Positions 21,570 to 44,001 of a DNA stretch of 64,000 bases are shown piece by piece. The notes below the pieces were generated by a model, which was not told the DNA's origin, searched no databases, and saw nothing but the letters and a program-made list of their open reading frames with translations. This stretch comes from an uncultured Alphaproteobacteria bacterium (GTDB lineage Bacteria; Pseudomonadota; Alphaproteobacteria; HIMB59; GCA-002718135): contig CACGDO010000006.1 in NCBI GenBank assembly GCA_902571865.1, positions 13,069 to 77,068 on the forward strand. The letters are read 5' to 3'. How positions within the stretch are numbered: the stretch's first letter is position 1; every line of letters begins with the position of its first letter. The position numbers and the translations under genes are program-made.

Positions 21570-22607
21570 ATGAAGAAAAACAAGAAAATAAATATTGTTG
21601 CTTTATCTCAAAAATTAGGTTTATCAGTGAGTTCAGTATCAAGAGCACTGAATGGATATGACAATATATCACAGAAAACAAAAGATAAAATTTTTAAAAC
21701 AGCTAAAAAATATAACTATTTTCCCGATTTAAATGCCAAAAGATTAGCTTCCAAAAAAACGGATACGATTGCTTTTATATCATCCATAGATCCTGACGCA
21801 CCAGATCACGTTGTTTTACAGTTTCTTGCAGGAATTACTCTTGGGATAAAAAATACAAATACTGAATTAATAACAAAATTTTGCTTAAATGAAGATGAAG
21901 AAATGAATTATTTCAAAAAACTCATTAGCACAGGTCAAGCAGATAAATTTATATTTTATAAAATTAAAAAAAATGACGAAAGAGTTCATTTCTTAAACCA
22001 AAGAGGAATCAAATTTGTGACTTGGGGTAGAACTAACAAACAAACAGAGCATGCTTGGATTGATCTGGATAATAAGAAAAGTATTGAACTGTTAATGGAT
22101 AAGCTTTCAAATAATGGTCATAAAAGAATTGCTTTTATCAATGTTCATCGCAGTTTTAATTATGGTGCACAACGAAAAGCCGCTTATGAAAGTTCGATGA
22201 AAAATTTACAACTACAATATTCAAATGAATATTATCAAGATAGTTTAATCGAAACTGTTGAGTCAGGATCAGCCATAACAAAGTATTTATTAAGTTTAAA
22301 AAAACCTCCTACTGCTATAATTTGTTCTCATCTTCGTTTTTTTACAGGATGTTTATTGAAATGTCAGGATATGAAATTAGAAATTGGAAAAGATATTTCT
22401 GTGGTAGGATTTAATGATCAAGATAGTTATTTAAGCTCTCAAAATCTTACATATATTTCACACCCATTAATGGAAATGGGAAAACAATCGGTAAAAATTT
22501 TACAGAACCTAGAACAAGATATATCAATAAAAAAAGTATCCACTTTGATTAACCCAATATTAAATGAAGGAACAAGTCACAAAATTAAAAAAACTAAATT
22601 AAGATAA
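21570..22607 (+). CDS. LacI family transcriptional regulator
   Basis: N-terminal HTH (IVALSQKLGLSVSSVSRALNG) and a periplasmic-binding-protein-like effector domain. Confidence 0.9.
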   Translation: MKKNKKINIVALSQKLGLSVSSVSRALNGYDNISQKTKDKIFKTAKKYNYFPDLNAKRLASKKTDTIAFISSIDPDAPDHVVLQFLAGITLGIKNTNTELITKFCLNEDEEMNYFKKLISTGQADKFIFYKIKKNDERVHFLNQRGIKFVTWGRTNKQTEHAWIDLDNKKSIELLMDKLSNNGHKRIAFINVHRSFNYGAQRKAAYESSMKNLQLQYSNEYYQDSLIETVESGSAITKYLLSLKKPPTAIICSHLRFFTGCLLKCQDMKLEIGKDISVVGFNDQDSYLSSQNLTYISHPLMEMGKQSVKILQNLEQDISIKKVSTLINPILNEGTSHKIKKTKLR

Positions 22608-26447: not shown

Positions 26448-26473
26448 AAAAGCAGGGTAAAAACCCTGCTTTA
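26448..26473 (-). terminator. stem-loop plus U-tract after the SBP gene (likely partial intrinsic terminator)
   Basis: AGCAGGGT-aaaa-ACCCTGCT (26451-26470). In the minus-strand direction it is followed by TTTTT and preceded by an A-tract. Confidence 0.55.
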
Positions 26474-26484
26474 AAAATTATAGT

Positions 26485-28696: not shown

Positions 28697-29761
28697 CTAA
28701 TTTATGACTGCTTTAAAATCACCAGATTTGTATTTGATAGCCATTTCACCTAAAGACATTGAATTTATTGAAGATGCATTACCGGCAGTGCCAAATTCTT
28801 GTAATCTATTTTTTACAACTTCCTTCATTGCATCTTTAGAAAGTAGTAAATATTTACGGGGATCAAATTGAGATGGATTTTCATGAAAATATTTTCTAAC
28901 AGCCGCTGTAGCAGCTAATCTCAGATCCGTATCAACATTAACTTTTCTCACGCCATGTTTAATGCCTTCTTGAATTTCTGAAACAGGTACGCCGTATGTC
29001 TCTTTTATTTTTCCACCATACTCATTAATAGTTTTTATTAAATCTTGTGGCACTGATGATGATCCGTGCATAACCAAATGTGTATTCGGAAGTCTTGAGT
29101 GAATTTCTTTTATTCTGTCTATTGCTAATATATCTCCTGTCGGTGGTCGTGAAAATTTATAAGCACCATGACTCGTTCCAATTGCAATAGCTAATGCGTC
29201 AACATTAGTTGCTTTTACAAAATCTGAAGCTTCATTAGGATCCGTTAGTAATTGATCATGATCAAGTTTACCTTCTGCACCTACACCGTCTTCTTTTTCC
29301 CCAGTTCCAGTTTCCAAAGAACCTAAACATCCAATTTCTCCTTCAACGGAGACACCTAAAGCATGCGCCATATCAGTTGTTTCTTTGGTAACTCTAACAT
29401 TGTAATCAAAGTCTGAAGGTGTTTTTTGATCATCCATTAAGGAGCCATCCATCATTACGGAAGTAAAACCTAATTCAATACAGTTTTTACAATCACTCGG
29501 AGATCCTCCATGATCTTGATGTAGAACAGTTGGAATGTCTGAAAACTCATCCATTGCTGCTTCAACTAATTTTTTAACAAAAATGGGGCCGGCATATTTT
29601 CTTGCAGCGCCAGATGCTTGCAGAATTACAGGGCTATTTAATTCTTTAGCCCCTTCCATTATGGCTCTTATTGCTTCCAAGTTATTTACATTAAATGCAG
29701 GTACACCATAATTATTTTCAGCTGCATGATCTAATAGTTGTCGAAGCGAAATTAATGACAT
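28697..29761 (-). CDS. fba: fructose-bisphosphate aldolase, class II
   Basis: [14 protein letters not shown] and HGSSS motifs, 354 aa (CbbA-type length). Confidence 0.9.
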
Positions 29762-29805: not shown

Positions 29806-30939
29806 GTGAAAGAAATTTTAAAATATTCTTGTCTAATTTTTTTATATGCTTTGTCACATAGTTATTTAGCAACATGTTTTGCAATTGATTTAAAAATAAA
29901 AGGTTATGAAGAACGTTACATAGGTCTATCATTATCATTCTGGGGTATCGGAGTTATTTTAGGGGCATTATTACATAATTTAATAAGAAAAAAATTAAAT
30001 TTATTTTCTACAATTTTATATGGTTCAATAATTCAGTTAAGTTTTTCTTTAATTTTTTTAATTGATCAAAATACTTTTCTAGTAGCTTTAATGCAATTTG
30101 TTATGGGTATAACTAGTGCAATTAATTCATTAACGCTTGAATCACACATCAGCTCTAAATTTAAGAAAACATCTGGTTTCTATATATCTTTATTTTGGTC
30201 ATCTGCTGGATTAGGCGCAATTACTGGAAGTCTATTTATAGCAATAAATGGTATAAATAATTTAACTTATTATGTAGCAGCTTTATTTTTTCTTATGCAT
30301 TTTATTCCAATTTATTTATTTCGCTCATCTATTAGTAAAATTGCCATTGAAAACCTGAGTCTTAGATTATCTAAAAATGTTTTAAGTAAAATAAAATATT
30401 TACTTTTTTGTGTAATATTATTTGGTGCATGTGATGCTGGATTTAGCTCATTATTTCCATCATATTTATTAGAAGAATCATATAGTGATAAGCAAGTTGG
30501 AAGAATAAATTTTTTAGCTGGATTAATTGCTTTAGTTTTTTATCCCTTTATGGGCAAGTTAGTAGATAATTATAATAAGACTATTATTTTTAATACTTTT
30601 TGTTTTATAAATTTTATTAATTTATTTATTCTTTATTTTATCAGTGATTTTTATGTTTATATAATTTGTGTAGCATTTTATTATTACACCATTGGAACAG
30701 TTTTCTTAATTACATTTAATATTGTAGGTAAAAAACTTGAAGGGGGAGTAATAGTTTTTGGAATAGCTGGTCACTATATCAGTGAAAATATCGGAAGTTT
30801 TCTTGGTCCTAATTTAATTGGTAATATCATTAATATAAATATTAATTATTTCTTTTTAATATTTGTTTTTTTATACATCTTAATAGTCTTACTATTTAAT
30901 TATAATCAAATAAAAGATGGTGGGCCCTCAGGGACTTGA
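29806..30939 (+). CDS. MFS transporter
   Basis: About 12 predicted TM helices. GTG start. The last 22 nt run antisense into the tRNA gene. Confidence 0.65.
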   Translation: MKEILKYSCLIFLYALSHSYLATCFAIDLKIKGYEERYIGLSLSFWGIGVILGALLHNLIRKKLNLFSTILYGSIIQLSFSLIFLIDQNTFLVALMQFVMGITSAINSLTLESHISSKFKKTSGFYISLFWSSAGLGAITGSLFIAINGINNLTYYVAALFFLMHFIPIYLFRSSISKIAIENLSLRLSKNVLSKIKYLLFCVILFGACDAGFSSLFPSYLLEESYSDKQVGRINFLAGLIALVFYPFMGKLVDNYNKTIIFNTFCFINFINLFILYFISDFYVYIICVAFYYYTIGTVFLITFNIVGKKLEGGVIVFGIAGHYISENIGSFLGPNLIGNIINININYFFLIFVFLYILIVLLFNYNQIKDGGPSGT

Positions 30940-30994
30940 ACCCCGGACCACCCCGTTATGAGCGGGGCGCTCTAACCAACTGAGCTAAGAGCCC
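30918..30994 (-). tRNA. tRNA with CAT anticodon (elongator Met or lysidine-modified Ile2; not initiator-like)
   Basis: Hand-folded cloverleaf: GGGCTCT/TA/GCTC-AGTTGGTTA-GAGC/G/CCCCG-CTCATAA-CGGGG/TGGTC/CGGGG-TTCAAGT-CCCTG/AGGGCCC/A/CCA (77 nt). 1-72 is G:C and there is no GGG/CCC anticodon stem. Confidence 0.85.
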
Positions 30995-31035: not shown

Positions 31036-31242
31036 TTATTTTTTAGAATTTAGCATTTTTTTTACTGAATGATAAAATTCATCAGTAACAGTAAAATAAA
31101 AGCCATTTTCTTCATGTAAAGAATTATTACCGTTTCCATTTACTGTATGAAAGTCTGTGAGATGTTTAAAAAAAATATTTATATCTGGAATGGCATATTT
31201 TCTACCATCATCACTTTTTATGATAAAACCCTCCTTACTCAC
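31036..31242 (-). CDS. hypothetical small protein (about 68 aa) possibly translationally coupled to the ABC ATPase
   Basis: The ORF 31036..31329 overlaps the ATPase 3' end. A GTG at 31242, preceded by GAGG, overlaps the ATPase stop (GTGAGTAA). I recognise no family. Confidence 0.35.
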   Translation of the reverse strand: MSKEGFIIKSDDGRKYAIPDINIFFKHLTDFHTVNGNGNNSLHEENGFYFTVTDEFYHSVKKMLNSKK

Positions 31243-32863
31243 CCACAACCTCAAATGCTGATTGAACAAGTTGCTTGGTATACTCATTAATTGGATTATC
31301 AAGAACATCTTTTGTAATTCCCTCTTCAATTACTTTACCATCTTTCATCACTAAAGTGTAATGACATAAGGATCTAATTACTTTTAAATTATGGCTAATA
31401 AATATGTAAGATAAATTATGATTTCTTCTTAAGGATCTTAGTAAATCTATTATTTGTGCTTGAATTGATAAATCTAACGCTGATGTTGGTTCATCCAATA
31501 ATATAAATTCAGGATTTAAGATTATTGCTCTAGCTATAGCTATTCTTTGTCTTTGACCTCCAGAAAATTCATGCGGAAATCTATGTAAGACGCTTTCATC
31601 TAAATTAACTTCTTCAAGCGTTTTTATTACTAAATTATCTTTTTCTTCACTAGATAAATCTTTTCTATTAATTTCTAAACCTTCTCCTATAATTTGTTTA
31701 ACAGTATGTCTTGGGTTTAATGAAGAAAAAGGATCTTGAAATACTATTTGCATGTGTTCTCTAAGTTCTTTCATTTTTTGAGTATTATAATTTTGAATTT
31801 CTTGATCCTCAAAAAAAATTTTACCAGAATTAATTTCTTGAAGCTTAATTAATGACATTCCTAAAGTACTTTTTCCTGAACCGCTCTCTCCAACAATACC
31901 TATTGTCTCTCCGTATCTAGCTTTTATATCAACATTATTAACAGCAATGAGCTCTGATGTTTTTTGATTAAAAAAATTTCCTTTTTTTAATACAAATTTA
32001 ACAGTACATTTTTGACCTTCTATAATATAATTTTTATTTTCCTCATCAAATGGATCTGGCTCACCACTTGGCTCAGAGTTAATTAGATGTTTTGTATATT
32101 CATGTTTAGGATTAGAAAAAACATCTTCTGTATACCCTTTTTCTACTATCTTACCGTATCGCATTACACAAATGCGATCACTGGTTTTACGCACAACTGT
32201 TAAATCATGAGTAATAAGCATTATTGCCATGCCGTATTTTTTTTGAAGATTTTTTAATAATTTTAAAATTTGTGATTGTATCGTTACATCTAAAGCTGTT
32301 GTTGGTTCATCTGCAATAAGTAAATCAGGTTTATTTGCAATCGCAATCGCGATCATGATTCTTTGTCTTTGACCCCCTGATAACTGGTGTGGATATTGAT
32401 TTAATCTTTCTTCGGGTTGTGGAATCTGAACTTCATTTAATAACTCTAAAGCCCTTTTTTGAGCTTGAAATTTACTTATGTTACTATGTTCACGAAGAAC
32501 TTCTATAATTTGACTTCCTATCTTATGTAAAGGATTTAAACTAGTTAAGGGTTCTTGAAAAATCATTGTTATACCATCCCCTCTGATTTGTCTCATTTGC
32601 TCATCAGTGAATTTACCTGTCTCAACACCTTTAAAAAAAATATTAGTTTTTGGTCCAACTGTTGAATTTTTTGGTAACATCTTCATGATGGTTCTTGCAG
32701 TAACAGATTTACCAGAACCTGACTCACCAACTATTGCAAGTGTCTCACCTTTCATAATATCAAATGAAATATCGTTTACGGCGTTTACTACACCTCCTTC
32801 AACACTGAATTTAATTTCAGCATTTTTTAGATCTAAAAGTTTTGTATTATTTTGAGACTGCAT
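31235..32863 (-). CDS. ABC transporter ATP-binding protein with duplicated ATPase domains (fused DppD/DppF type)
   Basis: Two Walker A motifs (GESGSGKS twice), two signatures (LSGGQRQR and FSGGQRQR), and two Walker B motifs. Confidence 0.9.
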   Translation of the reverse strand: MQSQNNTKLLDLKNAEIKFSVEGGVVNAVNDISFDIMKGETLAIVGESGSGKSVTARTIMKMLPKNSTVGPKTNIFFKGVETGKFTDEQMRQIRGDGITMIFQEPLTSLNPLHKIGSQIIEVLREHSNISKFQAQKRALELLNEVQIPQPEERLNQYPHQLSGGQRQRIMIAIAIANKPDLLIADEPTTALDVTIQSQILKLLKNLQKKYGMAIMLITHDLTVVRKTSDRICVMRYGKIVEKGYTEDVFSNPKHEYTKHLINSEPSGEPDPFDEENKNYIIEGQKCTVKFVLKKGNFFNQKTSELIAVNNVDIKARYGETIGIVGESGSGKSTLGMSLIKLQEINSGKIFFEDQEIQNYNTQKMKELREHMQIVFQDPFSSLNPRHTVKQIIGEGLEINRKDLSSEEKDNLVIKTLEEVNLDESVLHRFPHEFSGGQRQRIAIARAIILNPEFILLDEPTSALDLSIQAQIIDLLRSLRRNHNLSYIFISHNLKVIRSLCHYTLVMKDGKVIEEGITKDVLDNPINEYTKQLVQSAFEVVGE

Positions 32864-33971
32864 ATGGATCTACCGCATCTCTTATACCATCGCCAAAAGC
32901 GTTAAATGCTAAAACTGTAAAAATAATCATACCTACTGGAGCCATCATCCAAGGAGCATAGGCAAAACTTTGTATATCTAAAACCTGATTTAACATAACA
33001 CCCCATGAAACCATAGGATGCTGAACACCTACACCTAAAAAACTTAAAAATGTTTCAACTAAAATAATTGAAGGAATAGTAAAGGAAGTCCATACAATTA
33101 CATGAGATAATGTATTTGGAAAAATATGTTGAATCATTATTCGAGATCTTGAAGCACCAAGAGCTCTAGCAGCTCTTACAAACTCTAGATTTCTTACTAA
33201 AAAAGTTTTACCCCTAATCTCTCTTGCAATTGATGCCCAGTTTAATAATACAATAATTGCAGCAAATAAAATAAAGACAACTGTTTCATCTGCTCTTCTC
33301 GGTAAAAGTGCAACTAATGCAAAATATAATGGATAAGCTGGAAAAGAAAGAGCAAATTCTGTAACTCTTTGAGCAACTAAATCATAAGTTCCCCCAAAAT
33401 AACCAGAACTTATGCCTATCATTAAACCAATAATTAATGATGCACCAACTGCAATGAGAGCAAATAATAATGTTATTTGTGTTCCAACTAACATTCGTGA
33501 TAACATATCCCTTCCCATATTATCAGTACCTAAAAGATGTATATTTCCATCATTGTTTCCAAATAATCGAAGATTAAAATTCATTCCAAAAATTGTATAT
33601 TCATCACCTTGTATAAAAAATTTTATAGGAATCATTTCTTCAGACTCAGAAAAAGTAAACTCAAAAGTTTCCATGTCCATTTCTTCAATAGTTTTATAAA
33701 CAAAAGGACGAAAATGAAAGTTACCATTATTATCAAAAAAATGTATTAGTTGGGGAGGATGATATAATTCATCTTGAACAACTTTTTTATAATTATGTGG
33801 TGATAAAAATTCTGCAAATACTGCTAAAAATAAAATAAATATAACTCCATAAAAACCAAACATCCCATATCTATTTTTTTTAAGTCTTAAGTAAGAGAGG
33901 TGCCAATGGGAGTTAACTTTTATATAATTATCAGTCTCTGCATTTAATGTTTGAATATTATTACTATCCAC
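32847..33971 (-). CDS. peptide/opine/oligosaccharide-type ABC permease (DppC/OppC-like)
   Basis: BPD_transp_1-type TM protein with a long N-terminal periplasmic insert. Overlaps its neighbours. Confidence 0.8.
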   Translation of the reverse strand: MDSNNIQTLNAETDNYIKVNSHWHLSYLRLKKNRYGMFGFYGVIFILFLAVFAEFLSPHNYKKVVQDELYHPPQLIHFFDNNGNFHFRPFVYKTIEEMDMETFEFTFSESEEMIPIKFFIQGDEYTIFGMNFNLRLFGNNDGNIHLLGTDNMGRDMLSRMLVGTQITLLFALIAVGASLIIGLMIGISSGYFGGTYDLVAQRVTEFALSFPAYPLYFALVALLPRRADETVVFILFAAIIVLLNWASIAREIRGKTFLVRNLEFVRAARALGASRSRIMIQHIFPNTLSHVIVWTSFTIPSIILVETFLSFLGVGVQHPMVSWGVMLNQVLDIQSFAYAPWMMAPVGMIIFTVLAFNAFGDGIRDAVDPYAVSK

Positions 33972-34996
33972 TATGCTGCGCCTCCCGCCATATCTCTAAT
34001 TCTAGGATCTAAGAGTGCTAAAAAACAATCTGCAACAAAATTACCAATTACTAATACTAGTGATAAAATCATGAAGATTGAGGAGGCAACATATATATCC
34101 ATTGAAGATACAGAACTGAGCACTAATGGACCTACTGTTGGTATTGCTAAAACAATAGCAACTTCTATTTCACCCTCTATAAGGTAGGATACACTTCTAC
34201 CTTGGTTCATAATGATTGGATGCAATGCATTTGGAACACCATGCTTCCAAACTATTTTACTTTCCTTTAATCCTTTTGCTCTAGCTGTTTCAATAAATTG
34301 CATTTTTAAAACATCTAATAAATTTCCCCTCATCATCCTCATTTGATAGCCAGCCCCAACAAAACTTCCAACCGCAATAATTGGCCAAGTATGTAGGAAA
34401 AAATCCCAAGTTTTAGCTAAACTCCACCAACCTTCTTGCAATACGTATTCCTGTGAAAATAACGATCCGTAATAGGGAGAATGAAACTTAATTGCCCAAA
34501 AATATAAAATGAAAATTGCTATTATAAACTTAGGAATGGAGAAAGCTAAGAATGTTAAGACCGTGGCTATCTGATCTCCAATTTGATATTGATGAGTAGC
34601 GGCATATACGCCCGCAAGAATACCAATCGTTACTGCATTAAAATAACAAATAAATGCCAGTAGTAATGTCCGCGGAATCCTATCTCCAACAACATCATTT
34701 ACTGGTCTTTTTTGAACAAATGAATCTCCTAAATCCCAATATAAAGTTACATCTTTAACCCAAGTTAAATATTGTATGTATACAGGTTTATCTAAACCAA
34801 GTTTTTTTCTTAAATCTTGAGCTTGAATTTCTGCTTCATCTTCACTTATTCCGCCAAGCATCATTGTTTGTCTTTTCCATTGATCTGCGTAATCTCCAGG
34901 CATTGCTTGAACAAGAATGAATGCTACAAGAGTAATTGCTATTAGCAGAGGAATAGTTGCTATTAGCCTTTTTAAAAAGAAAATTAGAAAACCCAT
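33971..34996 (-). CDS. ABC permease (DppB/OppB-like)
   Basis: N-terminal FLIFFLKRLIATIPLL and a C-terminal LLDPRIR motif typical of DppB/OppB. Confidence 0.85.
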   Translation of the reverse strand: MGFLIFFLKRLIATIPLLIAITLVAFILVQAMPGDYADQWKRQTMMLGGISEDEAEIQAQDLRKKLGLDKPVYIQYLTWVKDVTLYWDLGDSFVQKRPVNDVVGDRIPRTLLLAFICYFNAVTIGILAGVYAATHQYQIGDQIATVLTFLAFSIPKFIIAIFILYFWAIKFHSPYYGSLFSQEYVLQEGWWSLAKTWDFFLHTWPIIAVGSFVGAGYQMRMMRGNLLDVLKMQFIETARAKGLKESKIVWKHGVPNALHPIIMNQGRSVSYLIEGEIEVAIVLAIPTVGPLVLSSVSSMDIYVASSIFMILSLVLVIGNFVADCFLALLDPRIRDMAGGAA

Positions 34997-35016
34997 ATTT
35001 GAAATTTAAGTTAATT

Positions 35017-35040
35017 CTATGGCCCTTTTACGGGCCATAG
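35017..35040 (-). terminator. intra-operon GC-rich stem-loop after the SBP gene
   Basis: CTATGGCCC-ttttac-GGGCCATAG (9-bp stem). No U-tract follows. Confidence 0.45.
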
Positions 35041-35053
35041 AAAATATATATTA

Positions 35054-37078
35054 TTAATACTCTGCTAATACACCAGGTAAGAACTCATCAAGTTGATCAG
35101 CTTTTGGAGTATAAAGTCTAGACCTCATAACTCCATCTTCTGCCCACTCATACATATACACAGGTGCACCAGGATGATTATTTTTTATCCTTTTATTGAT
35201 TAAAAGTGCAGCTGGAGCTTGAATTAAGCCCACGGTATATACATTTTCAGTTCTAACTCTCTGGATATCTCTAGCAAGACTTGCAACTTCTGAAAGATCA
35301 TTAGTTGATAATATGCCTTGAGCCTTATCAACCAGTGTTTCTTCAAATGCAAGTAGATCGCCTTCATTGTCTCTATGCCATGCTGGATTTTGAGATGTTG
35401 TTGGCAATCTATCACCAATATTCTTCGTCGCAACAACCCAGTGCTCTCTTGCAATATACATGCTCCAATTTCCACTATCAGTGAATGCATCAGTATTATC
35501 AGAAGGTTTTAAAACTGGTTTAATACCAATTGCTTCAAACATACTTACAGAAGCATCAGCTAATTTATTATCAGTAGATCTTAAACTATTATAAAGAACA
35601 TCAATAACAAGGTCATCTCCTCCATTAGGAAGATTTCTTATACCATTGCCGTCTGAGTCTTCTAAACCAAGACCATCCAAAATTGAATTAGCTCCAGATA
35701 CATTATATGCATAGTAAATTGAGTCATCAAAATTATGAAAAGGAGAACCTGCTACAAAACCACCAGCATGTGGATGAAAAAAAGGTCCTCTAGCAACTGA
35801 TTGACCCATAGTGTCTCTATCCATTGCATGTGACATTGCTTTTCTAAATTCCACATTTCTAAATAATTTTCTAAGCTCTCTTTCATAATCACTGCTTACA
35901 CCAAATTCTGAAGATAGATTCAGCATTAAGTCCCAAGCAATCAACCTTGTACCAAATACTGATTTAACTGGAGAATTAGGATCTTTGTTTTGTTTTAATG
36001 CTTCAACATAGTTTCCTGGATTTTCCATATTGGAAAAATCTCCAGTACCAGCTAAGGCCTGAGTAGTTCTATCATCCCAAGATGTTAACTTGTAGATAGT
36101 TTCATTATAGTAAGGAAGTTGATTACATTCTTCATCTACTTTCCAGTAATACGGGTTACGCTTCATAACCATTAACTCATCTACTTTATGAACTACTGGA
36201 ACAAAAGCTCCCATTGTAACAATAGGTAAAACACTTGCTGGCATTCCATTAGCGTATGACTCGTAAGTTGCATCACTATTATGCGCAGGGTGTAATGGTT
36301 TCATTACATGAGATGGTCCAGGAGCGCCTCCCATATATGCAAGCTGTGCTAATACAGCATTACCTTTTGGTTCATCAAAATTAAATTTGAATGAATATGG
36401 TCCAAGTATTTCGAGAGTTGTTCCTGCTCCTAATGCATCTTTAGGTAATCTAGAATTTACATTGGCGTCTTGAACATTATCGTTCCACCAAAAATCTATG
36501 TCTTCAGTGTCAAATATATCTCCATCTGACCATCTAGCTCCCTCTAAAAGATACATCGTTAGTGATTTTCTATCAGAACTGAATTCCCAATCTTTTGCCA
36601 AGTTTGGAAGTGGATTAGCTTCTTCTGCTTTAACTTGCCATAGAGGTCCAAGTCTAGTCAATGATTCCATTAGTTGAATATTAATTCCACCCCATCCTTG
36701 ACTTTGTCCAGCTAACCAGTTGAAACCTTCTGGTCTTCCACCAATAACATGTCGAAATGTTCCACCATACTCACCAATACCATCAACCATTTGATCTTTT
36801 TTTGCCATCCATGGTTCTTTAGGCATTCTTTCGTTTACAGGTGGTAACTTTCCAGCATCAACATAAGATTTTGTTAGAGGTGATTCATTATAACTATCAC
36901 AACTTTGATAAGTCCATAAATCATCTCTTCCCACAAGTTCAATATCCATACCGGACATACTCTTGTCTTTAGGCAAAGTTTCTAAACCACTTACAGTTGA
37001 AGTCATAGCAAAAATACTAACTCCAACAAGTAAGCTTGCTGCCTTGCTTTTAAATTTGAATTTATTTTCAATACCCAT
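35054..37078 (-). CDS. ABC transporter substrate-binding protein, family 5 (large, 674 aa)
   Basis: Signal peptide and a size typical of large cluster-C/family-5 SBPs. Heads a DppBC plus fused-ATPase operon. Has the AAGGGAGGAAA Shine-Dalgarno. Confidence 0.75.
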   Translation of the reverse strand: MGIENKFKFKSKAASLLVGVSIFAMTSTVSGLETLPKDKSMSGMDIELVGRDDLWTYQSCDSYNESPLTKSYVDAGKLPPVNERMPKEPWMAKKDQMVDGIGEYGGTFRHVIGGRPEGFNWLAGQSQGWGGINIQLMESLTRLGPLWQVKAEEANPLPNLAKDWEFSSDRKSLTMYLLEGARWSDGDIFDTEDIDFWWNDNVQDANVNSRLPKDALGAGTTLEILGPYSFKFNFDEPKGNAVLAQLAYMGGAPGPSHVMKPLHPAHNSDATYESYANGMPASVLPIVTMGAFVPVVHKVDELMVMKRNPYYWKVDEECNQLPYYNETIYKLTSWDDRTTQALAGTGDFSNMENPGNYVEALKQNKDPNSPVKSVFGTRLIAWDLMLNLSSEFGVSSDYERELRKLFRNVEFRKAMSHAMDRDTMGQSVARGPFFHPHAGGFVAGSPFHNFDDSIYYAYNVSGANSILDGLGLEDSDGNGIRNLPNGGDDLVIDVLYNSLRSTDNKLADASVSMFEAIGIKPVLKPSDNTDAFTDSGNWSMYIAREHWVVATKNIGDRLPTTSQNPAWHRDNEGDLLAFEETLVDKAQGILSTNDLSEVASLARDIQRVRTENVYTVGLIQAPAALLINKRIKNNHPGAPVYMYEWAEDGVMRSRLYTPKADQLDEFLPGVLAEY

Positions 37079-37166
37079 CTTTCCTCCCTTAGAAAAAATA
37101 TTTACATAAATAGAGTATTTTTTTTCTACAAAATCAATATCAAAAATAAATTATTTTTTAATAATT

Positions 37167-38696
37167 TTATGAGTTTGTAGAAATATTGATAAATTGGTTG
37201 TGAGTAAGAGATTCCTTAATAATTTGATTAAATTTTTGAGAAAAATCATTATAATATTGTCTAGAACTAGACCTTAAATCATACTTTTGCATTTGTTGTC
37301 TTGCAGATTCCTTATTTAATAGCCCAAGACCGTCTACAACTGGGTAATAAAGCTGTGATTGTACATGAGGTAGGCCAGATAAGTAATCATCAAAGTGATC
37401 CAAACTTGGAAGTTCATCTTGCCAAAGTGATATAAGTTTTTTTGTTTCTTCACTAATACATTCATCAGCAACATATTCCCAAAATTGTGAATCTCTTCTC
37501 TTAGAAACATAATGCATATTCAAGAAAGTTTTAAAATCATCAAACTGTCGACCAATACGATTATTAAAATCTGATATTTTATTATCATCATTGAAATCCA
37601 TTTCTTTTTTTAAATATTCAGAAGCAAATAAAATTAATTGTACCAAAGTACTATGAATGGAAGTGGCCTCCAATGGTTCAAGAAAACCTGATGATAAACC
37701 TATTGCCAAACAATTTTTTACCCAATACTTTTCAAGTCGACCACTATTAAATTTTATATCTCTTCTTGGTTCAATTTTATGTCCAAAAACTTTTTCTATT
37801 TCTTCTTGTGCTTGATCAGGTGAAATAAATTGATCACTATATACATAGCCAGCACCTATTCTTTCTTGAGTTGGTATTTGCCACATCCACCCAAATTTTT
37901 GTGCCCAAGCTAAAGTATAATTAATATAATTTTCTTCATTAATATCTAGAAAGAAAGGCATTGCTCTATTAACAGGTAAATTGTCTTGATAGGATTTCCA
38001 TTTTGTTTTGTACTGATCTCCAATAATTAATTTCCTAAATCCACTACAATCAACAACGAGATCAATATCTAATTCTAACCCACTCTCAAAATGTAAAGAT
38101 TCTATTGTTCCATCATCATTAACTTTACAAGATGTATAAACATCATCGATTATTTCTATATTCTGAGATCTTTTCTTTAAATAACTAGCTACTAGTGAAT
38201 TATCAAAATGATACGCATAATAAAATGGACTAATAAGTTCTAAATTATTATCTTTATAAACATAGGGAACTTTTTTATTTTGCATAAGTAACGTATGTAG
38301 GTGAATTTCTGAAACAGGTCTCCCAGCAGCGACGGCATAAGCTTTTAAGTATTCAAAATTTTCTGGCTTACTTTTTGGTGCTATTAATTGAGGGTCATCA
38401 ATTGGTCCATAATAAGTATACCCCAATTCTTTCCAGTCTTTATGAACGATACCAAACTTTAAAGTAGCTTTAGTTTCTTTTAAAAAATCTGTCTCATCTA
38501 AATTATATTTTTTTAAAAACTCATAAAAAATACTTGTTGTTCCTTCTCCAACACCAATTGTTGGAATTTTTGATGATTCAATTACTTTTACATTTGCATT
38601 TAATTTATTAGAGTAAAAAAAATCACTCATAATATAAGCAGCTAACCATCCAGCAGTTCCACCACCTAAAATAACAACATTTTTAATTTCTTTCAT
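37167..38696 (-). CDS. flavin-dependent (tryptophan-type) halogenase family protein
   Basis: GGGTAGW dinucleotide fold, IGVGEGT, WxWxIP motif (GWMWQIP), and a GLSSGFLEPLEATSIH block closely resembling PrnA/RebH-family proteins. Confidence 0.75.
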   Translation of the reverse strand: MKEIKNVVILGGGTAGWLAAYIMSDFFYSNKLNANVKVIESSKIPTIGVGEGTTSIFYEFLKKYNLDETDFLKETKATLKFGIVHKDWKELGYTYYGPIDDPQLIAPKSKPENFEYLKAYAVAAGRPVSEIHLHTLLMQNKKVPYVYKDNNLELISPFYYAYHFDNSLVASYLKKRSQNIEIIDDVYTSCKVNDDGTIESLHFESGLELDIDLVVDCSGFRKLIIGDQYKTKWKSYQDNLPVNRAMPFFLDINEENYINYTLAWAQKFGWMWQIPTQERIGAGYVYSDQFISPDQAQEEIEKVFGHKIEPRRDIKFNSGRLEKYWVKNCLAIGLSSGFLEPLEATSIHSTLVQLILFASEYLKKEMDFNDDNKISDFNNRIGRQFDDFKTFLNMHYVSKRRDSQFWEYVADECISEETKKLISLWQDELPSLDHFDDYLSGLPHVQSQLYYPVVDGLGLLNKESARQQMQKYDLRSSSRQYYNDFSQKFNQIIKESLTHNQFINISTNS

Positions 38697-38699
38697 AAG

Positions 38700-40184
38700 T
38701 TATTTATCAAATTCAAAAGCTTGTGCTTCTACAAGCAGAGATGATTCTTTGTCGTTTTTTAGTTCTTCAGGTGATCTTGTTTTCATTCGAGCAGCGCCTT
38801 TAAAATTTTTCTTTTTAACAGTTGATTTTTTTATTCTTTCTAATGCTTGATCCATTTCATTTTGGTATTGTGGTAACCACTTAGATTGAGCTACTAACAT
38901 TTCATCTACCATTGCCCAAACTTCATCAGGTGAACAAACTGCACTTACTAATGGATCTTGTAGAACAGCTAATTTTAAAAGATTAATATCTCCATCAATT
39001 GCTGCTTTAACAGCCATTCTTTGCACATCAATTGAAGTTCGGCATAATGAGGCACAAGCCATTGGTAATTCTATACCCTTAATCATTTTAATACCGTCCT
39101 TATCAACTATGCCAGTACTTTCAATTACACAATCATCTGGTAAATTTTTTATAGTACCATTGTTTACAACATTAAAATGACCTCTATAAGGTCTGTTAGT
39201 TTCTATAGCTTCAATTATATAACTTCCATGCTCAGTTGATCTTTTGTGAGTTGATATATCAATTCCAGATTCATTTAAAAATTTTGAAAAATCTTCTACA
39301 AACCAATTTCTTTTTTCTGAAGTAACTCTTAAATATCCACCTGTTTCACCATGTATCCAATTTGATAGATCAATCCAATTTGGTATTTCTTCTACCCTCT
39401 TTCTATACCATGGAAGATATTCACTTAAATGACCATTACTTTCAGTTGAGAATAAGCCAAATCTCTTTAGAATATCAATTCTAACTTTTTCTTGTTTTGA
39501 TATTTCAGGATGATTTTCTAAAGCTTCGACAAGCACATCTTTTGAGACCTTTTCGCCTTTAAATTTTAAATCAATGTACCATGTCATATGATTAATTCCA
39601 CTGCACATATACTCAAGATCAGTATCGTTTTCAGAACCTAAAGCCTTAGAAATTAATTTGGCACCACCTTGAACACCGTGGCACAAACCGACCGTATTTA
39701 CTTTTGCTTCAGATATAGCTGCCCATGTGTTCATAGCCATAGGATTAGAATAATTTAAAAATAATGCATCTTTATGAGAAAAAGATTTTATATCATCACA
39801 AAATTTTAAAGTTTGAGGAATATTTCTTTGTCCATATAAAATTCCTCCAGCACAAATTGTATCTCCTACACATTGATCTACTCCATATTGAAGGGGGATA
39901 TTAATATCATGTTCAAATGCTTCTAACCCACCTATTCTAGTACAATTAATAATATATTTTGCCCCATCTAGTGATTTTTTTCTATCAGTTGATTGTTCTA
40001 TCTTTGCTGGGAGCTTATTTTGATCAATATCTTTTTGAATTAAACGAGAAACTAATTCTAAATTTTTTTTTGAAATATCATGAAATGAAAAAGTGATATC
40101 TTGAAATTCAGGAACTTTTAGCAAATCTCTTACTAAGGTTTGTGTAAACCCTATACTGCCTGCACCAATAAAACTAATTTTCAT
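38700..40184 (-). CDS. glycoside hydrolase family 4 (NAD+/Mn2+-dependent alpha-glucosidase/galactosidase-like)
   Basis: KISFIGAGSIGF Rossmann motif, LNYSNPMAMNTW, GLCHGVQG and GINHMTWY motifs. Has an extra C-terminal tail of about 50 aa. Confidence 0.8.
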   Translation of the reverse strand: MKISFIGAGSIGFTQTLVRDLLKVPEFQDITFSFHDISKKNLELVSRLIQKDIDQNKLPAKIEQSTDRKKSLDGAKYIINCTRIGGLEAFEHDINIPLQYGVDQCVGDTICAGGILYGQRNIPQTLKFCDDIKSFSHKDALFLNYSNPMAMNTWAAISEAKVNTVGLCHGVQGGAKLISKALGSENDTDLEYMCSGINHMTWYIDLKFKGEKVSKDVLVEALENHPEISKQEKVRIDILKRFGLFSTESNGHLSEYLPWYRKRVEEIPNWIDLSNWIHGETGGYLRVTSEKRNWFVEDFSKFLNESGIDISTHKRSTEHGSYIIEAIETNRPYRGHFNVVNNGTIKNLPDDCVIESTGIVDKDGIKMIKGIELPMACASLCRTSIDVQRMAVKAAIDGDINLLKLAVLQDPLVSAVCSPDEVWAMVDEMLVAQSKWLPQYQNEMDQALERIKKSTVKKKNFKGAARMKTRSPEELKNDKESSLLVEAQAFEFDK

Positions 40185-40255
40185 ATTTTTATTTTTACAC
40201 TGAGTAAATTAATTGACAATGTTTTATTTTTATACATCATTAAAAAATATTAAAG

Positions 40256-40996
40256 ATGACTGAATTACAGAATTTTATAAAAAATGGATTTGTTCTAAAG
40301 AAAAGTCTTTTTTCTAAAGAGGAGATTGATAAGTTAAATCAATACATCTCTATTCGACAAGACAAAGAGCAAAGTGCTAGAGAAACAACAACTTCAACTG
40401 GGAAATTAACAATGACGATGTGGAATCATCCTTCAGAAGATTTATTTGGAAAATTCTCTACTAATGAAAGAATAGTCAAACCAATGGAAATTTTCTTAAA
40501 TGATGAAGTTTATCATTATCATTCCAAAATTATTTGGAAAAATCCAGGTGATGGTGGATTTGATTGGCATCAAGATTATGGTTATTGGTATCACAACGCC
40601 TGTCTTTATCCAGATATGGCATCATGTTTTATAATGCTAGATAAAGCAAATAAAGAAAATGGCTGTCTCAAAGTATTGAGAGGCTCTCATCGTGTTGGAA
40701 GAATTAGCCATGAACGATCAGACACACCTGAACAAACAGCAGATAATGAAAGAATAAGAGAATTAGAAAAAAGACATGAGTCTGTTTATATTGAAGCAGA
40801 ACCAGGAGATGCATTATTCTTTCATTCAAATCTATTGCACTCTTCTGATGCAAATAAATCAAAAAATTCTAGAAGAACATTAATAGTGTGCTTTAATACT
40901 AAATCCAATAATCCTTATAAAGAAATTGGACATGCTTCTTATAACCAGTTAAAAGTAGCAAATCATAATTCAATTATGGAGTATAAAATTGACTAA
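40256..40996 (+). CDS. phytanoyl-CoA dioxygenase (PhyH) family Fe(II)/2OG oxygenase
   Basis: Canonical WHQDYGYW (HxD), distal FFHSNLLHSS and an RR motif, 246 aa. Confidence 0.8.
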   Translation: MTELQNFIKNGFVLKKSLFSKEEIDKLNQYISIRQDKEQSARETTTSTGKLTMTMWNHPSEDLFGKFSTNERIVKPMEIFLNDEVYHYHSKIIWKNPGDGGFDWHQDYGYWYHNACLYPDMASCFIMLDKANKENGCLKVLRGSHRVGRISHERSDTPEQTADNERIRELEKRHESVYIEAEPGDALFFHSNLLHSSDANKSKNSRRTLIVCFNTKSNNPYKEIGHASYNQLKVANHNSIMEYKID

Positions 40997-42350
40997 ACTC
41001 ACAATCATTGGTGCTGGTAGCGCAGTATTTACCAAAAATATTTTTACAGATTTAATGTTTATTGATGATTTTAAAAAAATGGACATTGCGCTGGTAGACA
41101 TCGATGAGAAAAGATTAAAAATTTCTCATGAGTTACTAGATGTAATTGCAAAAAAGTTGGATGCTTCTCCTAATATAAAATCATATACAAATAGAAAAGA
41201 AGCTTTAGCAGGTTCTGATTTTGTACAATCAACTATCCAAGTGGGAGGATATAAACCATCAACAGTAATAGATTTTGATATTCCAAATCAATTTGGGTTA
41301 AAACAAACAATTGCTGATACCCTAGGCATTGGAGGAATTATGCGAGGTCTCAGAACAATTCCTGTTTTAGTGGATATTGGTAAAGATATAATGGATCTCT
41401 GTCCAAATTCATTATGGTTGCAATATGTAAATCCAATGTGTTCAAATATGATAGCGATAAATAACGCATGTCCTGGAATTAATTCTATAGGACTATGTCA
41501 TTCAGTGCAAGGAACTGCAGAAATGCTTGCTAGAGATTTAAATGAAAAAATTGAAGATATTGATTATCTATGTGCTGGGATTAATCATATGGCTTTCTAT
41601 AAAAAGTTTTCAAAAAAAAATGGTAATGGGGGAGAGGATCTTTATCCAAGATTGAAAAAGTTAGCTGATGATATTGTTAGAGATAAAATAACATCTACTA
41701 GAAGTATAGGTAGGGATAGTGAATCAGATAAAGTTCTACATGAAAAAGTAAGATATGAAATTTTAAGACGATTTGGTTATTTTGTTACAGAGTCTAGTGA
41801 ACATTTTGCTGAGTATGTTCCATGGTTTATTAAACAAAACAGACAAGATTTAATTGATCAATATAAAATTCCAATTGAAGAGTATATTGATAGGTGTGAA
41901 AATAATATCAAGTTATGGGACGATTTAGAAAAAGATATGACACCCATACATAATCAACCTCTAAAAAGAGGAAAGGAATATGCATCATACATTATGGACG
42001 CTGTAACAAATAATAATGAAGTAACGATTAACGGTAATGTAATGAATGATGGATATATAGATAATTTACCATCAAATTGTTGTGTTGAAGTTCCCTGTTT
42101 AATTAATTCAAATGGTAATGAACCTCAAAAGACCGGTCGCCTACCTGAACATTTAGCAGCATTAATGAGAACAAATATAAATGTTCAAATATTGACTGCA
42201 GAAGCGGCATTAACAAATAAAAAAGAGCATATCTATCATGCTGCAATGCTTGATCCCCTTACTGGAGCTAATTTATCAATTGATGAAATATATGCAATGG
42301 TTGATAAGTTAATTGCAGCACACGGGAAATATTTACCAAAATATCATTAA
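40989..42350 (+). CDS. glycoside hydrolase family 4 (MelA-like)
   Basis: TTG start. LTIIGAGSAVFTKN, YVNPMCSNM, GLCHSVQG and GINHMAFY motifs. 8-nt overlap with the PhyH gene. Confidence 0.8.
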   Translation: MTKLTIIGAGSAVFTKNIFTDLMFIDDFKKMDIALVDIDEKRLKISHELLDVIAKKLDASPNIKSYTNRKEALAGSDFVQSTIQVGGYKPSTVIDFDIPNQFGLKQTIADTLGIGGIMRGLRTIPVLVDIGKDIMDLCPNSLWLQYVNPMCSNMIAINNACPGINSIGLCHSVQGTAEMLARDLNEKIEDIDYLCAGINHMAFYKKFSKKNGNGGEDLYPRLKKLADDIVRDKITSTRSIGRDSESDKVLHEKVRYEILRRFGYFVTESSEHFAEYVPWFIKQNRQDLIDQYKIPIEEYIDRCENNIKLWDDLEKDMTPIHNQPLKRGKEYASYIMDAVTNNNEVTINGNVMNDGYIDNLPSNCCVEVPCLINSNGNEPQKTGRLPEHLAALMRTNINVQILTAEAALTNKKEHIYHAAMLDPLTGANLSIDEIYAMVDKLIAAHGKYLPKYH

Positions 42351-43177
42351 TGTCGAAACTTACAGTTAAAGATTTATTTGACAAAAAAGGAAAAGTTAAA
42401 TTAACAGAACTGTATGTAACAAATGCTTTAGAAGCGTATGCAGCTGAACAAGCTGGAATAGATATACAGATTGTATCATTTAAAAAAGATACATTAAGAA
42501 CAGGAGTGCCAACAAATAAATGGTTTAGAGATGCACATATAAAAGATATTCGTGATGCCGCTCCAAACACTTTTATGATTTATGGTCTTGGTCAATTATC
42601 TTCTCCAGAAAAAGCAATTGATGCTGCTCTTATTGCAAGAGAAAATGGGGCCGATGCAGTTTATTGTGGTAATAGTCCAAAATATATAGAAGCTCTTCGA
42701 AATGAAGGATTGCCAGCCGTCAGTCATATAGGCTTAATACCTTATAAAAGTACATGGACTGGTGGTTTTAAAGCAGTAGGAAAAGATGCTATATCTGCCT
42801 ACAACGTTTATCAAGATGCTTTGGCATACGATCAAGCAGGTGCAATTGGTCTTGAAGTAGAATGTGTGCCTGATAGAGTTGCGGAAGTTATTACAAAAAA
42901 AGTTAATTTATTAACATTATCTATGGGAAGTGGCCCTAAATGTGATGTTGAGTTTTTATTTATTCAAGATGTTATAGGTACCAATACTGATAGAGTGCCT
43001 CGTCATGCTAAAGTTTTTAAGGATACAAATAAATCTTACGAAAAGCTTGTTGATGACACTATTGAAGGACTTAAGAGTTTTATTGAAGACGTAAACACTA
43101 AAAAATTTCCAACTCCATCAAATATAGTTGAAATAAAAGATGATGAGTTTGAAAAATTTTTAAATAAGATTGGTTAG
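42350..43177 (+). CDS. PanB-like (ketopantoate hydroxymethyltransferase fold, ICL/PEP-mutase superfamily) protein, divergent
   Basis: The C-terminal half resembles PanB (HIGLIPYKSTWTGGFKAVGK, GLEVECVP, SMGSGPKCDVEFLFIQDVIG). The N-terminal catalytic motifs are not recognisable. TAATG overlap with GH4. Confidence 0.55.
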   Translation: MSKLTVKDLFDKKGKVKLTELYVTNALEAYAAEQAGIDIQIVSFKKDTLRTGVPTNKWFRDAHIKDIRDAAPNTFMIYGLGQLSSPEKAIDAALIARENGADAVYCGNSPKYIEALRNEGLPAVSHIGLIPYKSTWTGGFKAVGKDAISAYNVYQDALAYDQAGAIGLEVECVPDRVAEVITKKVNLLTLSMGSGPKCDVEFLFIQDVIGTNTDRVPRHAKVFKDTNKSYEKLVDDTIEGLKSFIEDVNTKKFPTPSNIVEIKDDEFEKFLNKIG

Positions 43178-44001
43178 ATATTTACTATTAATAAATCTTT
43201 TCCAATTATTGGATCTTTGCCAAAATCTTTTTTTACAATTTTCTTTAATTTTGAAACATTAAATCTTGTTGGAACAAAATGTGTTAAAACAAGTTTTTTA
43301 CAGTTTGTTAGTTTAGCTACTTTACCTACAAGATTACTTGGAGTGTGATATTCTTTAACATTATGTAATGTTTTTTTAGTTCTTAGTTTTGATGTTTTAT
43401 TCATTTCATATTCTATAAAAACCTCATGAAGTAAAACATCTGAGTTCTGAGCATTTTGCATTAAACTTTCACACGGTCTTGTATCTCCACTTATAGTTAA
43501 TTTCTTATTATTATTATAAAATGAAAATCCATATGCATATGGCACTGGTTTATGATCAACTTCAAAGTATTTAATTTTAATATCATTTATACTTATTGAG
43601 CCTTTTTTATTAAATTCATAAACTTTATATTTCAAACCTTTTGTTGATTTTCTTTTTTCATATGAAATTCTTAATTCACGTTCAATTTTCCAAGCTGAAA
43701 ATATTTTATCAACAAATTTCTTTGTTCCTTTTGGTCCATATATTTTCCAAATTGAATCTCTATCCGAGTGCCAAGATGATATAATGAGTTGATATAAATC
43801 AATTACATGATCAGTGTGCAAATGCGTAATCAATAAAGCATCAATATCTGCTGAAGAATATCCACTTTGATTTAATCTTTGTGTTACACCAGAACCACAA
43901 TCAATTAGGATTTTAGTTTTTTTTGTTGATACAAAGTTTGATGCACCACACCTTTTGTAATCAATTGATGGGCATCCAGTTCCAAGAAGCGTTAGCTTCA
44001 T
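43174..44001 (-). CDS. MBL-fold metallo-hydrolase (RNase Z/ElaC-like)
   Basis: HLHTDH (HxHxDH) motif. 1-nt TAATG overlap with the rpoD stop. Confidence 0.75.
   Translation of the reverse strand: MKLTLLGTGCPSIDYKRCGASNFVSTKKTKILIDCGSGVTQRLNQSGYSSADIDALLITHLHTDHVIDLYQLIISSWHSDRDSIWKIYGPKGTKKFVDKIFSAWKIERELRISYEKRKSTKGLKYKVYEFNKKGSISINDIKIKYFEVDHKPVPYAYGFSFYNNNKKLTISGDTRPCESLMQNAQNSDVLLHEVFIEYEMNKTSKLRTKKTLHNVKEYHTPSNLVGKVAKLTNCKKLVLTHFVPTRFNVSKLKKIVKKDFGKDPIIGKDLLIVNI

Follow-up and report, generated by a model that had tools for sequence, protein, structure and literature searches.

Which pathway is encoded by the 12-kb locus at positions 31036 to 43177 of the alphaproteobacterial DNA studied here, where an Opp-type ABC importer stands beside a flavin-dependent-halogenase-family gene, two glycoside hydrolase family 4 (GH4) genes, a PhyH-family dioxygenase gene and a gene related to panB? 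The whole stretch analysed, 64,000 nt long with a G+C content of ~30%, is called the window below; close homologues carry the name Pelagibacteraceae. SAR11 is the most abundant ocean heterotroph, and its known substrates are mostly small and non-glycosidic. The initial annotation of the window, made from the sequence without database searches, knew of no characterised pathway joining these families and proposed an undescribed system. We found that six of the ten genes, for a substrate-binding protein (SBP), two permeases, an ATPase and both GH4 enzymes, reproduce the rhizobial Agp/Mel locus in families, order and length, so that orthologues in a characterised pathway exist for the transporter and GH4 part. 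We read the locus as very probably the SAR11 version of the alphaproteobacterial Agp/Mel system for alpha-galactoside import and hydrolysis, carried partly on a flexible island and lacking AraC. The claim of novelty holds for the accessory enzymes only: the transporter and GH4 core is known, and what is new is a halogenase-family group inside alpha-galactoside operons and a wide PanB-like subfamily.

A transporter and GH4 core of the Agp/Mel type

All ten open reading frames (ORFs) of the annotated gene set were recovered at their coordinates by ORF listing and translation, and Pfam and NCBIfam scans gave a strong family match for each enzyme and transporter component. The genes of the core are:

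31235 to 32863, minus strand: fused double ABC ATPase, AgpD-like (two ABC_tran domains and oligo_HPY, Pfam)
32847 to 33971, minus strand: OppC/DppC-type permease, AgpC-like (OppC_N and BPD_transp_1)
33971 to 34996, minus strand: OppB/DppB-type permease, AgpB-like (BPD_transp_1_N and BPD_transp_1)
35054 to 37078, minus strand: periplasmic SBP of the MelB/AgpA family, 674 amino acids (aa) (SBP_bac_5; match to PDB 6epy)
38700 to 40184, minus strand: GH4a, predicted MelA-type alpha-galactosidase (Pfam GH4; NCBIfam PRK15076, 550.6 bits)
40989 to 42350, plus strand: GH4b, predicted MelA-type alpha-galactosidase (Pfam GH4; PRK15076, 595 bits)

The SBP, which starts with a signal-like segment, aligns over residues 45-661 with residues 25-654 of Agrobacterium fabrum MelB (PDB 6epy; E 1.4e-166, 559 bits), a structure deposited as 'periplasmic alpha-galactoside-binding protein'. 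In a tblastn search of plasmids, 250 rhizobial replicons encoded homologues with ~43% identity over 98-99% of the SBP, those of Ensifer/Sinorhizobium megaplasmids among them. Melibiose, raffinose, galactinol and stachyose are taken up via the SBP of the Agrobacterium mel operon (PMC6683767), and in Sinorhizobium the melA/agp genes are needed for raffinose and melibiose use, AgpT being an AraC activator (PMC4254191).

Synteny extends this match to the whole core. On Ensifer canadensis pT173d (L061), an AraC gene is followed by GH4 - SBP - permease - permease - fused ATPase - GH4, whose products are respectively 59, 43, 45, 45, 54 and 48% identical to those of the window; the run from the SBP through permeases B and C to a single fused double ATPase has the same order and the same sizes in both. 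The ATPase is 54-56% identical to those of the Ensifer and Devosia Mel-type loci. A DNA repeat found inside its gene (31438-31588 and 32254-32404, 816 nt apart, 72-77% identity) exists because the fused protein holds two ABC domains. The agpT/melA-agpABCD locus of Sinorhizobium meliloti, for which pT173d stands in this comparison, likewise encodes a family-5 SBP of ~675-695 aa, two permeases, a fused ATPase and two flanking GH4s. In contrast to it, the SAR11 locus has no AraC, its second GH4 gene is divergent and belongs to the backbone, its transporter block is a flexible island with two alleles, and halogenase-family, PhyH, 68-aa and PanB-like genes are added. Homology to A. fabrum MelB (PDB 6epy-6eq8) covers the full length of both SAR11 SBP alleles; compared with the A. 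fabrum mel operon, SAR11 has extra enzymes and a marine host, for which the natural alpha-galactosides are probably different. Judged by these matches, the importer is an Agp/Mel-type alpha-galactoside ABC system.

Both GH4 proteins exceed the cut-off of 486 bits of PRK15076, the model of MelA-type alpha-galactosidases, and carry the Pfam GH4 domain end to end. Each has the motifs IGAGS (at position 6 in GH4a and 7 in GH4b), GLCH (166/168) and GINH (196/197); we take the first to be the NAD+ Rossmann motif, and the Cys/His motifs to be the Mn2+ site. At the melA position, Ensifer, Devosia and Pelagibacterium have a GH4 that shares 59-62% identity with GH4a; for GH4b, the counterpart in Ensifer and Devosia lies downstream of the ATPase and shares 48%. 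Because they share only 34% identity with each other, GH4a and GH4b are, by sequence, old paralogues with separate orthologues. We found no description of SAR11 GH4 genes in the literature searched.

In the mechanism that we propose, the MelB/AgpA-type periplasmic protein would, as its homology suggests, capture an alpha-galactoside, the two Opp-type permeases and the single fused double ATPase would import it, and the two paralogous NAD+/Mn2+-dependent MelA-type GH4s would split off galactose in the cytoplasm. Ligands already characterised for such systems are melibiose, raffinose and galactinol; in seawater, floridoside and other galactosylglycerols are plausible candidates, as is the digalactosylglycerol head group. 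PhyH and the PanB-like protein would probably process a substituent or product of the imported sugars. Two proposals of the initial annotation are supported: that this family-5 SBP system carries sugars rather than peptides, and that uptake is followed by NAD-dependent deglycosylation of a glycoside by GH4.

A replacement-type flexible island next to a GH4b and PanB-like backbone

The remaining genes of the locus, with the tRNA gene that borders it, are:

30918 to 30994, minus strand: tRNA-Met (CAT), found by ARAGORN; left edge of the flexible island
31036 to 31242, minus strand: small conserved gene, 68 aa, 59 of 85 positions identical to L146 (tblastn); type A island only
37167 to 38696, minus strand: flavin-dependent-halogenase-family enzyme, 509 aa (Trp_halogenase PF04820, 354 bits)
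40256 to 40996, plus strand: PhyH-family Fe(II)/2-oxoglutarate dioxygenase (PF05721, 117 bits)
42350 to 43177, plus strand: PanB-like TIM-barrel protein (Pantoate_transf PF02548, 132 bits)

A scan with the PanB-like protein, limited to one genome per species, gave 52 loci, almost all from SAR11-type single-cell genomes. By mapping the window proteins and locating tRNAs, 36 SAR11 species genomes could be classified. In these, a variable segment lies between tRNA-Met and the block GH4b - PanB-like - MBL-fold gene - rpoD - dnaG. Nine genomes, including the window, are of type A, with tRNA-Met, the small gene, ATPase, permeases, SBP, halogenase-like gene, GH4a and PhyH. Fourteen are of type B, where the same families are found but the transporter and GH4a are only 43-65% identical to those of the window, and where the halogenase-like gene (64%) is relocated to the end, after the ATPase. 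In these type B islands it occupies the place held by the 68-aa gene in type A. A type-B-like variant with an extra PhyH-like gene, L047, comes in addition to the 14. The last 13 genomes, type C, have no transporter, halogenase-like, GH4a or PhyH gene at this place, and tRNA-Met is found ~125 nt upstream of GH4b; in types A and B the whole island separates the two. About one in three of the species examined thus lacks the island, and GH4b is present in all three configurations.

Four genomes show where exchange took place. In L008, L009, L017 and L032, the GH4b is of the window type (97-99%) but the island beside it is of type B (PhyH 77%), and the exchange junction therefore falls at the PhyH/GH4b boundary. 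Given this junction and the three configurations, PhyH belongs to the island, and GH4b and PanB-like to the backbone. We class the ~9.9-kb segment between tRNA-Met and GH4b, which occurs as two divergent alleles, as a flexible island of the replacement type. An integrative island was considered and rejected: no integrase family was found among the ORFs of the locus (Pfam), no tRNA-derived repeat was found, and the island lies on the 5' side of the tRNA. The locus had been described as a single unit, which does not fit the persistence of GH4b and PanB-like in 13 SAR11 genomes without the rest. For SAR11 ecology, this would mean that many species are able to take up glycosides of the di- or oligosaccharide type, and that this capacity is a niche-defining flexible trait.

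A remodelled PanB-like subfamily

The PanB-like protein falls short of the pantothenate models, with 106 bits for TIGR00222 panB (cut-off 207.55) and 115.7 bits for PRK00311 (cut-off 272). Compared with PanB (1m3u), Asp45, Ser46, Asp84 and Lys112 are replaced (F44, K45, G79 and Y105), and the position of Glu114 is a gap or Gly; from 1m3u, we take Asp45 and Asp84 to be Mg2+ ligands, and Ser46, Lys112 and Glu114 to be further PanB residues. Equivalents of His136 and Glu181 are kept (H126 and E171). The protein shares with PanB (1m3u, 3vav) these two residues, a family-level match and the TIM-barrel fold, its model having a TM-score of 0.70-0.77 to the ketopantoate hydroxymethyltransferase (KPHMT) structures 3vav, 1m3u and 1oy0. 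A housekeeping panB was rejected on the grounds of the replaced metal ligands.

These replacements are not a sign of decay. Within SAR11, the protein is conserved at 86-96% identity in more than 100 clusters. An exhaustive representative search gave dozens of full-length relatives, 36-47% identical and with the same replacement pattern; canonical PanBs appeared only at ~31-33% identity. Y105, H126, E169, E171, D199, D207 and P217-R218-H219 are invariant in the subfamily. By sequence, the PanB-like protein is remodelled, not decayed, and represents a wide uncharacterised subfamily: it had been called degenerate, which is right for the PanB metal and catalytic residues but does not suit a conserved group with its own invariants.

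The genes around distant PanB-like members were surveyed in 64 metagenomic loci. They are oxygenase and sugar transporter genes, unlike the panC/panD expected around a PanB. FA_desaturase-like di-iron proteins are found in 21 loci, and aldehyde dehydrogenase (ALDH) in 15, always immediately upstream; other recurrent neighbours are Opp-type and ribose-type ABC components, Rieske ferredoxin and its reductase, FA_hydroxylase, LacI and PhyH. One locus (L097) reads ALDH - PanB-like - sugar ABC - ThuA - GFO/IDH/MocA - xylose-isomerase-like TIM, and another (L117) has oxygenase/PanB-like repeats beside a sugar ABC system and a PfkB kinase. L046 has PhyH, sugar ABC, PanB-like, PhyH, a sugar-acid dehydratase and a lactonase. 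Low-G+C, SAR11-like loci (L117 at 6140-8822, L046 at 15474-18156, L119, L120, L138 and L141) have two to three PanB-like paralogues each, interleaved with membrane di-iron oxygenases, Rieske ferredoxin and ferredoxin reductase. An apparent PanC+PhyH fusion (P0390) turned out to be a gene-call artefact over a longer intergenic region, with a weak Pfam match.

From these surroundings we infer that the PanB-like protein may take part, after an oxygenase, in breaking down sugar-like compounds. By analogy with PanB chemistry, reasonable guesses at its reaction are the transfer of a hydroxymethyl group or formaldehyde to tetrahydrofolate and the cleavage of a 4-hydroxy-2-oxoacid. A 2-oxoacid end product handled by this enzyme, as first proposed, is not directly supported, the subfamily neighbours being oxygenases, aldehyde dehydrogenase and sugar ABC genes. 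The subfamily deserves attention for this recurrence with oxygenases in sugar loci.

Does the PanB-like gene then belong to the alpha-galactoside system at all? Its place beside GH4b may have a functional reason or be a matter of position alone. Possibly PanB-like, and perhaps GH4b as well, are unrelated in function to the island: they would be backbone genes bordering a recombination hotspot, and their 1-nt overlap would reflect SAR11 genome compaction. Both genes are found with or without the island; in L065, PanB-like directly follows PhyH and GH4b is absent; and the L046 copy, 85% identical, sits in another sugar ABC context without a MelA-type GH4. MelA-type GH4 is no part of the wider neighbourhood pattern either, since even a remote GH4 lies nearby in only 3 of the 64 loci. 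Against this, GH4b is the syntenic orthologue, at 48% identity, of the second rhizobial alpha-galactosidase, nearly all SAR11 genomes sampled keep the GH4b/PanB-like junction, and the PanB-like subfamily is always met in sugar-type catabolic surroundings. We regard the bystander status of these genes as a serious possibility, somewhat short of probable.

A halogenase-family gene embedded in Mel-type operons

The halogenase-like protein was aligned with 118 homologues of 46-95% identity. The FAD motif G11-x-G13-x-x-G16, W270-x-W272-x-I274-P275, K80 and the EPLE glutamates E340/E343 are present, and across the 119 aligned sequences these motifs vary little or not at all; the Lys and Glu correspond to the catalytic residues K79 and E346 of PrnA. 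The structural model (pLDDT 89) has the two-domain fold, with TM-scores of 0.81-0.86 to Thal, PyrH, PrnA and BrvH. Fold, FAD motif, WxWxIP, Lys and Glu are thus common to the window protein, the tryptophan halogenases (PrnA, RebH, PyrH, Thal) and the orphans BrvH, Xcc4156 and 2pyx. Unlike those halogenases, to which it is only 24-29% identical, the window protein sits in a catabolic sugar operon and has no reductase partner nearby: neither flavin reductase nor biosynthetic genes were found near the halogenase-like gene in the window locus or in homologous loci. The lack of a surrounding biosynthetic cluster is shared with BrvH, which does not accept tryptophan and whose native substrate is not known (PMC5945002, PMC7754283).

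Orthologues (43.5-52% identity) lie within Mel-type loci in every non-SAR11 context inspected, namely Pelagibacterium limicola, Devosia rhodophyticola, L142, L143 and L144/145. In L142 a single operon reads SBP - permeases - ATPase - GH4 - Hal - GH4. On a Sulfitobacter mediterraneus plasmid, which gave the only orthologue-level halogenase match in the plasmid collection, the halogenase-like gene overlaps both GH4 genes by 4 nt. The loci of D. rhodophyticola, P. limicola, this plasmid and L142-L145 share with the window the SBP, permeases, ATPase, two GH4s and the halogenase-like gene, often translationally coupled; unlike SAR11, they keep AraC or HTH regulators and have no PhyH or PanB-like gene. 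A further lineage, on metagenome contigs of 45% G+C (L058-L060), has GH4 - small ORF - PhyH-family (311 aa) - halogenase-like with a 20-nt overlap, and continues with SET-domain, GH2 and GH32 genes. The GH32 gene there hints at raffinose-type substrates.

Halogenase-like and GH4 genes, whose joint presence elsewhere had been suggested as a check on the pathway, therefore do occur together outside this genome, in Devosia, Pelagibacterium, Sulfitobacter, L058-L060 and L142-L145. PhyH and PanB-like, initially counted among the parts of one system, accompany none of the Mel-type loci examined in other taxa. The association of the halogenase-like gene with the Mel-type operon is conserved and real, and sequence comparison makes this halogenase-family flavoprotein a conserved component of a subset of Mel-type operons. 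What is new here, on the same comparison, is an orthologous halogenase-family group inside alpha-galactoside operons of SAR11, Devosia/Pelagibacterium and Sulfitobacter: in the literature searched we found no study of Mel-type operons with an embedded halogenase, and no report linking the Trp-halogenase family to alpha-galactosidases or to SAR11.

More distant paralogues (28-35%) are found in Catenovulum (two loci), Asticcacaulis, Niveispirillum and Sphingomonas. A TonB-dependent receptor gene adjoins them in all five loci, and LacI and/or glycosidase genes are also present in four of the five. On Catenovulum adriaticum pCadTS8_1 (L149, 2764-16102), the order is glpD - tpiA - TonB receptor - Hal - SapC - alpha-galactosidase - beta-galactosidase - SLC5, a set that would suit the use of galactosylglycerol or digalactosylglycerol by an alga-associated bacterium. 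A Niveispirillum cyanobacteriorum plasmid (L152, 3350-13089) has four tandem halogenase-family genes beside one TonB-dependent receptor gene. The text of Blanvillain 2007 does not mention halogenase, SapC or Pass1.

For PhyH, the iron triad is present as H105-Q-D107 and H195, and the nearest solved structures are those of a 'phytanoyl-CoA dioxygenase' (7dt0/7e01), followed by GriE and EctD. It shares the HxD...H triad and the fold family with EctD and GriE, but with 68 bits remains far under the cut-off (336.5) of the ectoine-hydroxylase model. PhyH is very abundant in marine metagenomes, at 76-95% identity. Two loci, L047 and L067, have a copy resembling a second PhyH of the window (PhyH2, described below; 74-75% identical) between GH4a and PhyH.

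Could the halogenase-like, PhyH and PanB-like enzymes be obligatory? As the initial annotation had it, the substrate would be an unusual modified glycoside (O-methylated, halogenated or otherwise substituted), and the three enzymes would be necessary steps of an undescribed pathway of oxidative deglycosylation and tailoring. The retention of the halogenase catalytic residues in all 119 sequences, with orthologues inside GH4 operons, is what one would expect, and so is the tandem GH4 - PhyH-family - halogenase-like next to GH2 and GH32 in the L058-type lineage; but the L058 PhyH is unrelated in sequence to that of the window. PhyH moves with the island and not with the backbone, which fits, yet GH4b and PanB-like persist without the island. 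The recurrence of the PanB-like subfamily with oxygenases, aldehyde dehydrogenase and sugar ABC/ThuA/GFO genes is also in line with such a pathway, as is the position of the Catenovulum paralogue between TonB receptor and alpha-/beta-galactosidase genes, near glpD and tpiA. However, the rhizobial loci, which have the same transporter and orthologues of both GH4s, function in the absence of all three enzymes (PMC4254191); in Devosia, Pelagibacterium and Sulfitobacter, neither PhyH nor PanB-like accompanies the halogenase-like gene of the Mel-type loci; and no flavin reductase is encoded nearby. We consider this pathway of three obligatory steps rather unlikely.

In a weaker form, which we propose tentatively, the halogenase-like enzyme, alone or with PhyH and PanB-like, might catalyse an undescribed reaction on the glycoside once imported, or on its products. 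Put more broadly, and with the same caution, a catalytically intact halogenase-fold clade may work in glycoside catabolism instead of natural-product biosynthesis, being joined in SAR11 by PhyH and the remodelled PanB-like protein. Alpha-galactosides offer no obvious electron-rich carbon for halogenation; possible acts would be the oxidative or halogenative removal of a modification, or one-carbon transfer to tetrahydrofolate, on the alpha-galactoside, its aglycone or a substituent. If true, marine sugar use would include an undescribed enzymatic step, and the orphan 'tryptophan halogenase family' genes found beside sugar-uptake systems in many Proteobacteria would for the first time have a physiological context. 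In any event, the Mel-type operons offer a testable context for orphan halogenase-family enzymes of the BrvH type (PMC7754283).

Which glycoside is imported?

Several points weigh against the alpha-galactoside reading. A plain alpha-galactoside pathway has no need of a halogenase-like, PhyH or PanB-like enzyme, yet each of them is highly conserved. In the locus, no genes for galactose catabolism were identified. Ligand and GH4 activity are assigned from sequence, and with ~43% identity to its rhizobial megaplasmid homologues, the SBP could have shifted in specificity. The type B SBP allele matches MelB end to end with 597 bits; between the two alleles, and between them and the Devosia SBP, identity is only ~43-44%, so that at least one of them may prefer a different glycoside.

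Another alpha-glycoside, for example sulfoquinovosyl- or glucosyl-glycerol, might then be the substrate, with GH4s specific for that sugar and oxygenases removing its substituent. The ocean is rich in osmolytes and lipid head groups of this kind. The identity of only 43-44% between the SBPs, and between them and characterised relatives, leaves room for this. GH4 specificity also varies widely, and the best solved-structure matches of the two GH4s are an alpha-galacturonidase and phospho-glucosidases. Yet GH4a and GH4b score 551 and 595 bits, above the cut-off, with the MelA model, versus 133 and 144 bits with the AglA alpha-glucosidase model, and both SBP alleles match MelB end to end; we find a different sugar improbable. 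An ordinary oligopeptide, dipeptide, opine or nickel importer of the Opp/Dpp class with unrelated neighbours, to which the generic NCBIfam matches of the permeases and ATPase (Opp, Dpp, Nik, Gsi and YejF models) could point, is highly improbable, as all SBP and permease matches to Opp/Dpp/Nik-class models are under the curated cut-offs, the SBP has 17-64 bits with the OppA, DppA, NikA and CntA models (NCBIfam) versus 559 with MelB, and synteny with GH4 is found in every lineage examined.

Transcription units and candidate control elements

On the minus strand, the order of transcription is GH4a (40184 to 38700), halogenase-like (38696 to 37167), SBP (37078 to 35054), the two permeases, the ATPase (32863 to 31235) and the small gene. 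GH4a is the first gene of this unit, the reverse of the initial order, which placed the halogenase-like gene ahead of GH4. The annotated gene set and spacings proved accurate: an 88-nt gap separates the halogenase-like and SBP genes (37079-37166), a 71-bp gap (40185-40255) the divergent GH4a and PhyH genes, and the overlaps are of 8 nt for PhyH/GH4b and 1 nt for GH4b/PanB-like.

The small ORF had been called as a 97-aa TTG ORF (31329 to 31036). A conserved gene does exist there, but its extent needs correction. In the related contig L146, stop codons interrupt the upstream third of this frame and the last ~62 codons are kept. Because these stops lie upstream of the ATPase stop, the 68-aa call (31242 to 31036) is preferred, and the longer ORF is likely over-extended. 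The 68-aa gene is translationally coupled to the ATPase gene, its GTG start overlapping the ATPase stop by 8 nt (GTGAGTAA), and Pfam and NCBIfam scans of its product gave no match.

Two candidate control elements were examined:

35015 to 35042, minus strand: intercistronic stem-loop in the SBP/permease spacer, 11-bp stem with 6 G-C pairs
40185 to 40255, strand unassigned: candidate divergent control region, TTGACAAT(A/G)TT core kept across alleles

As first annotated, no regulator gene is encoded inside 31036-43177 (Pfam); the nearest one, of the LacI family, lies at 21570..22607, 8.4 kb away. AraC genes were found in all non-SAR11 Mel-type loci examined, except that the Sulfitobacter locus has an unspecified HTH regulator instead. 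The GH4a/PhyH spacer measures 66-75 nt, and the TTGACAAT(A/G)TT core, which coincides with -35-like hexamers on both strands, is the only block common to all island alleles. Promoter-like sites in the region are not above chance (59, versus 67 +/- 8 in shuffles), so the core is a candidate element only. Expression would probably start from this conserved divergent promoter core.

The 57-nt spacer between the SBP and permease genes folds into a hairpin with the 11-bp, G+C-rich stem (-21 kcal/mol, z = -4.4 relative to shuffles). Hairpins of different sequence are predicted at the same spot in type A subtypes, type B, Devosia, Ensifer and L142, from minimum free energy (MFE) only and with no shuffle control. 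This suggests selection on structure; in the 88-nt gap between the halogenase-like and SBP genes no significant structure was found (z = -0.3). In SBP-dependent ABC operons, a hairpin after the SBP gene fits differential SBP expression, and here the stem-loop would probably raise SBP output relative to the permeases.

Genes flanking the locus

On the right, an MBL-fold, RNase Z-like gene (43174-44001, minus strand; 138 bits, under cut-offs) converges on PanB-like with a 4-nt overlap, and belongs to the conserved backbone ahead of rpoD and dnaG. Upstream of the locus, a second and larger sugar-type region (15432-27738) encodes a GFO/IDH/MocA protein, a xylose-isomerase-like TIM barrel, a MalK-type ATPase, two permeases, an SBP_1 protein, the LacI regulator (21570..22607, plus strand), an aldo-keto reductase, a second GFO/IDH/MocA protein, a fused double permease and another SBP_1 protein; its NCBIfam matches (levoglucosan, inositol and xylose dehydrogenase-like) are far under the cut-offs. 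Between this region and the tRNA-Met, the second PhyH-family gene adjoins a class II fructose-bisphosphate aldolase gene (27824-28651 and 28697-29761, both on the minus strand). This second PhyH has no BLAST-level relation to that of the island, and the PhyH2/aldolase pair is conserved backbone in all three configurations.

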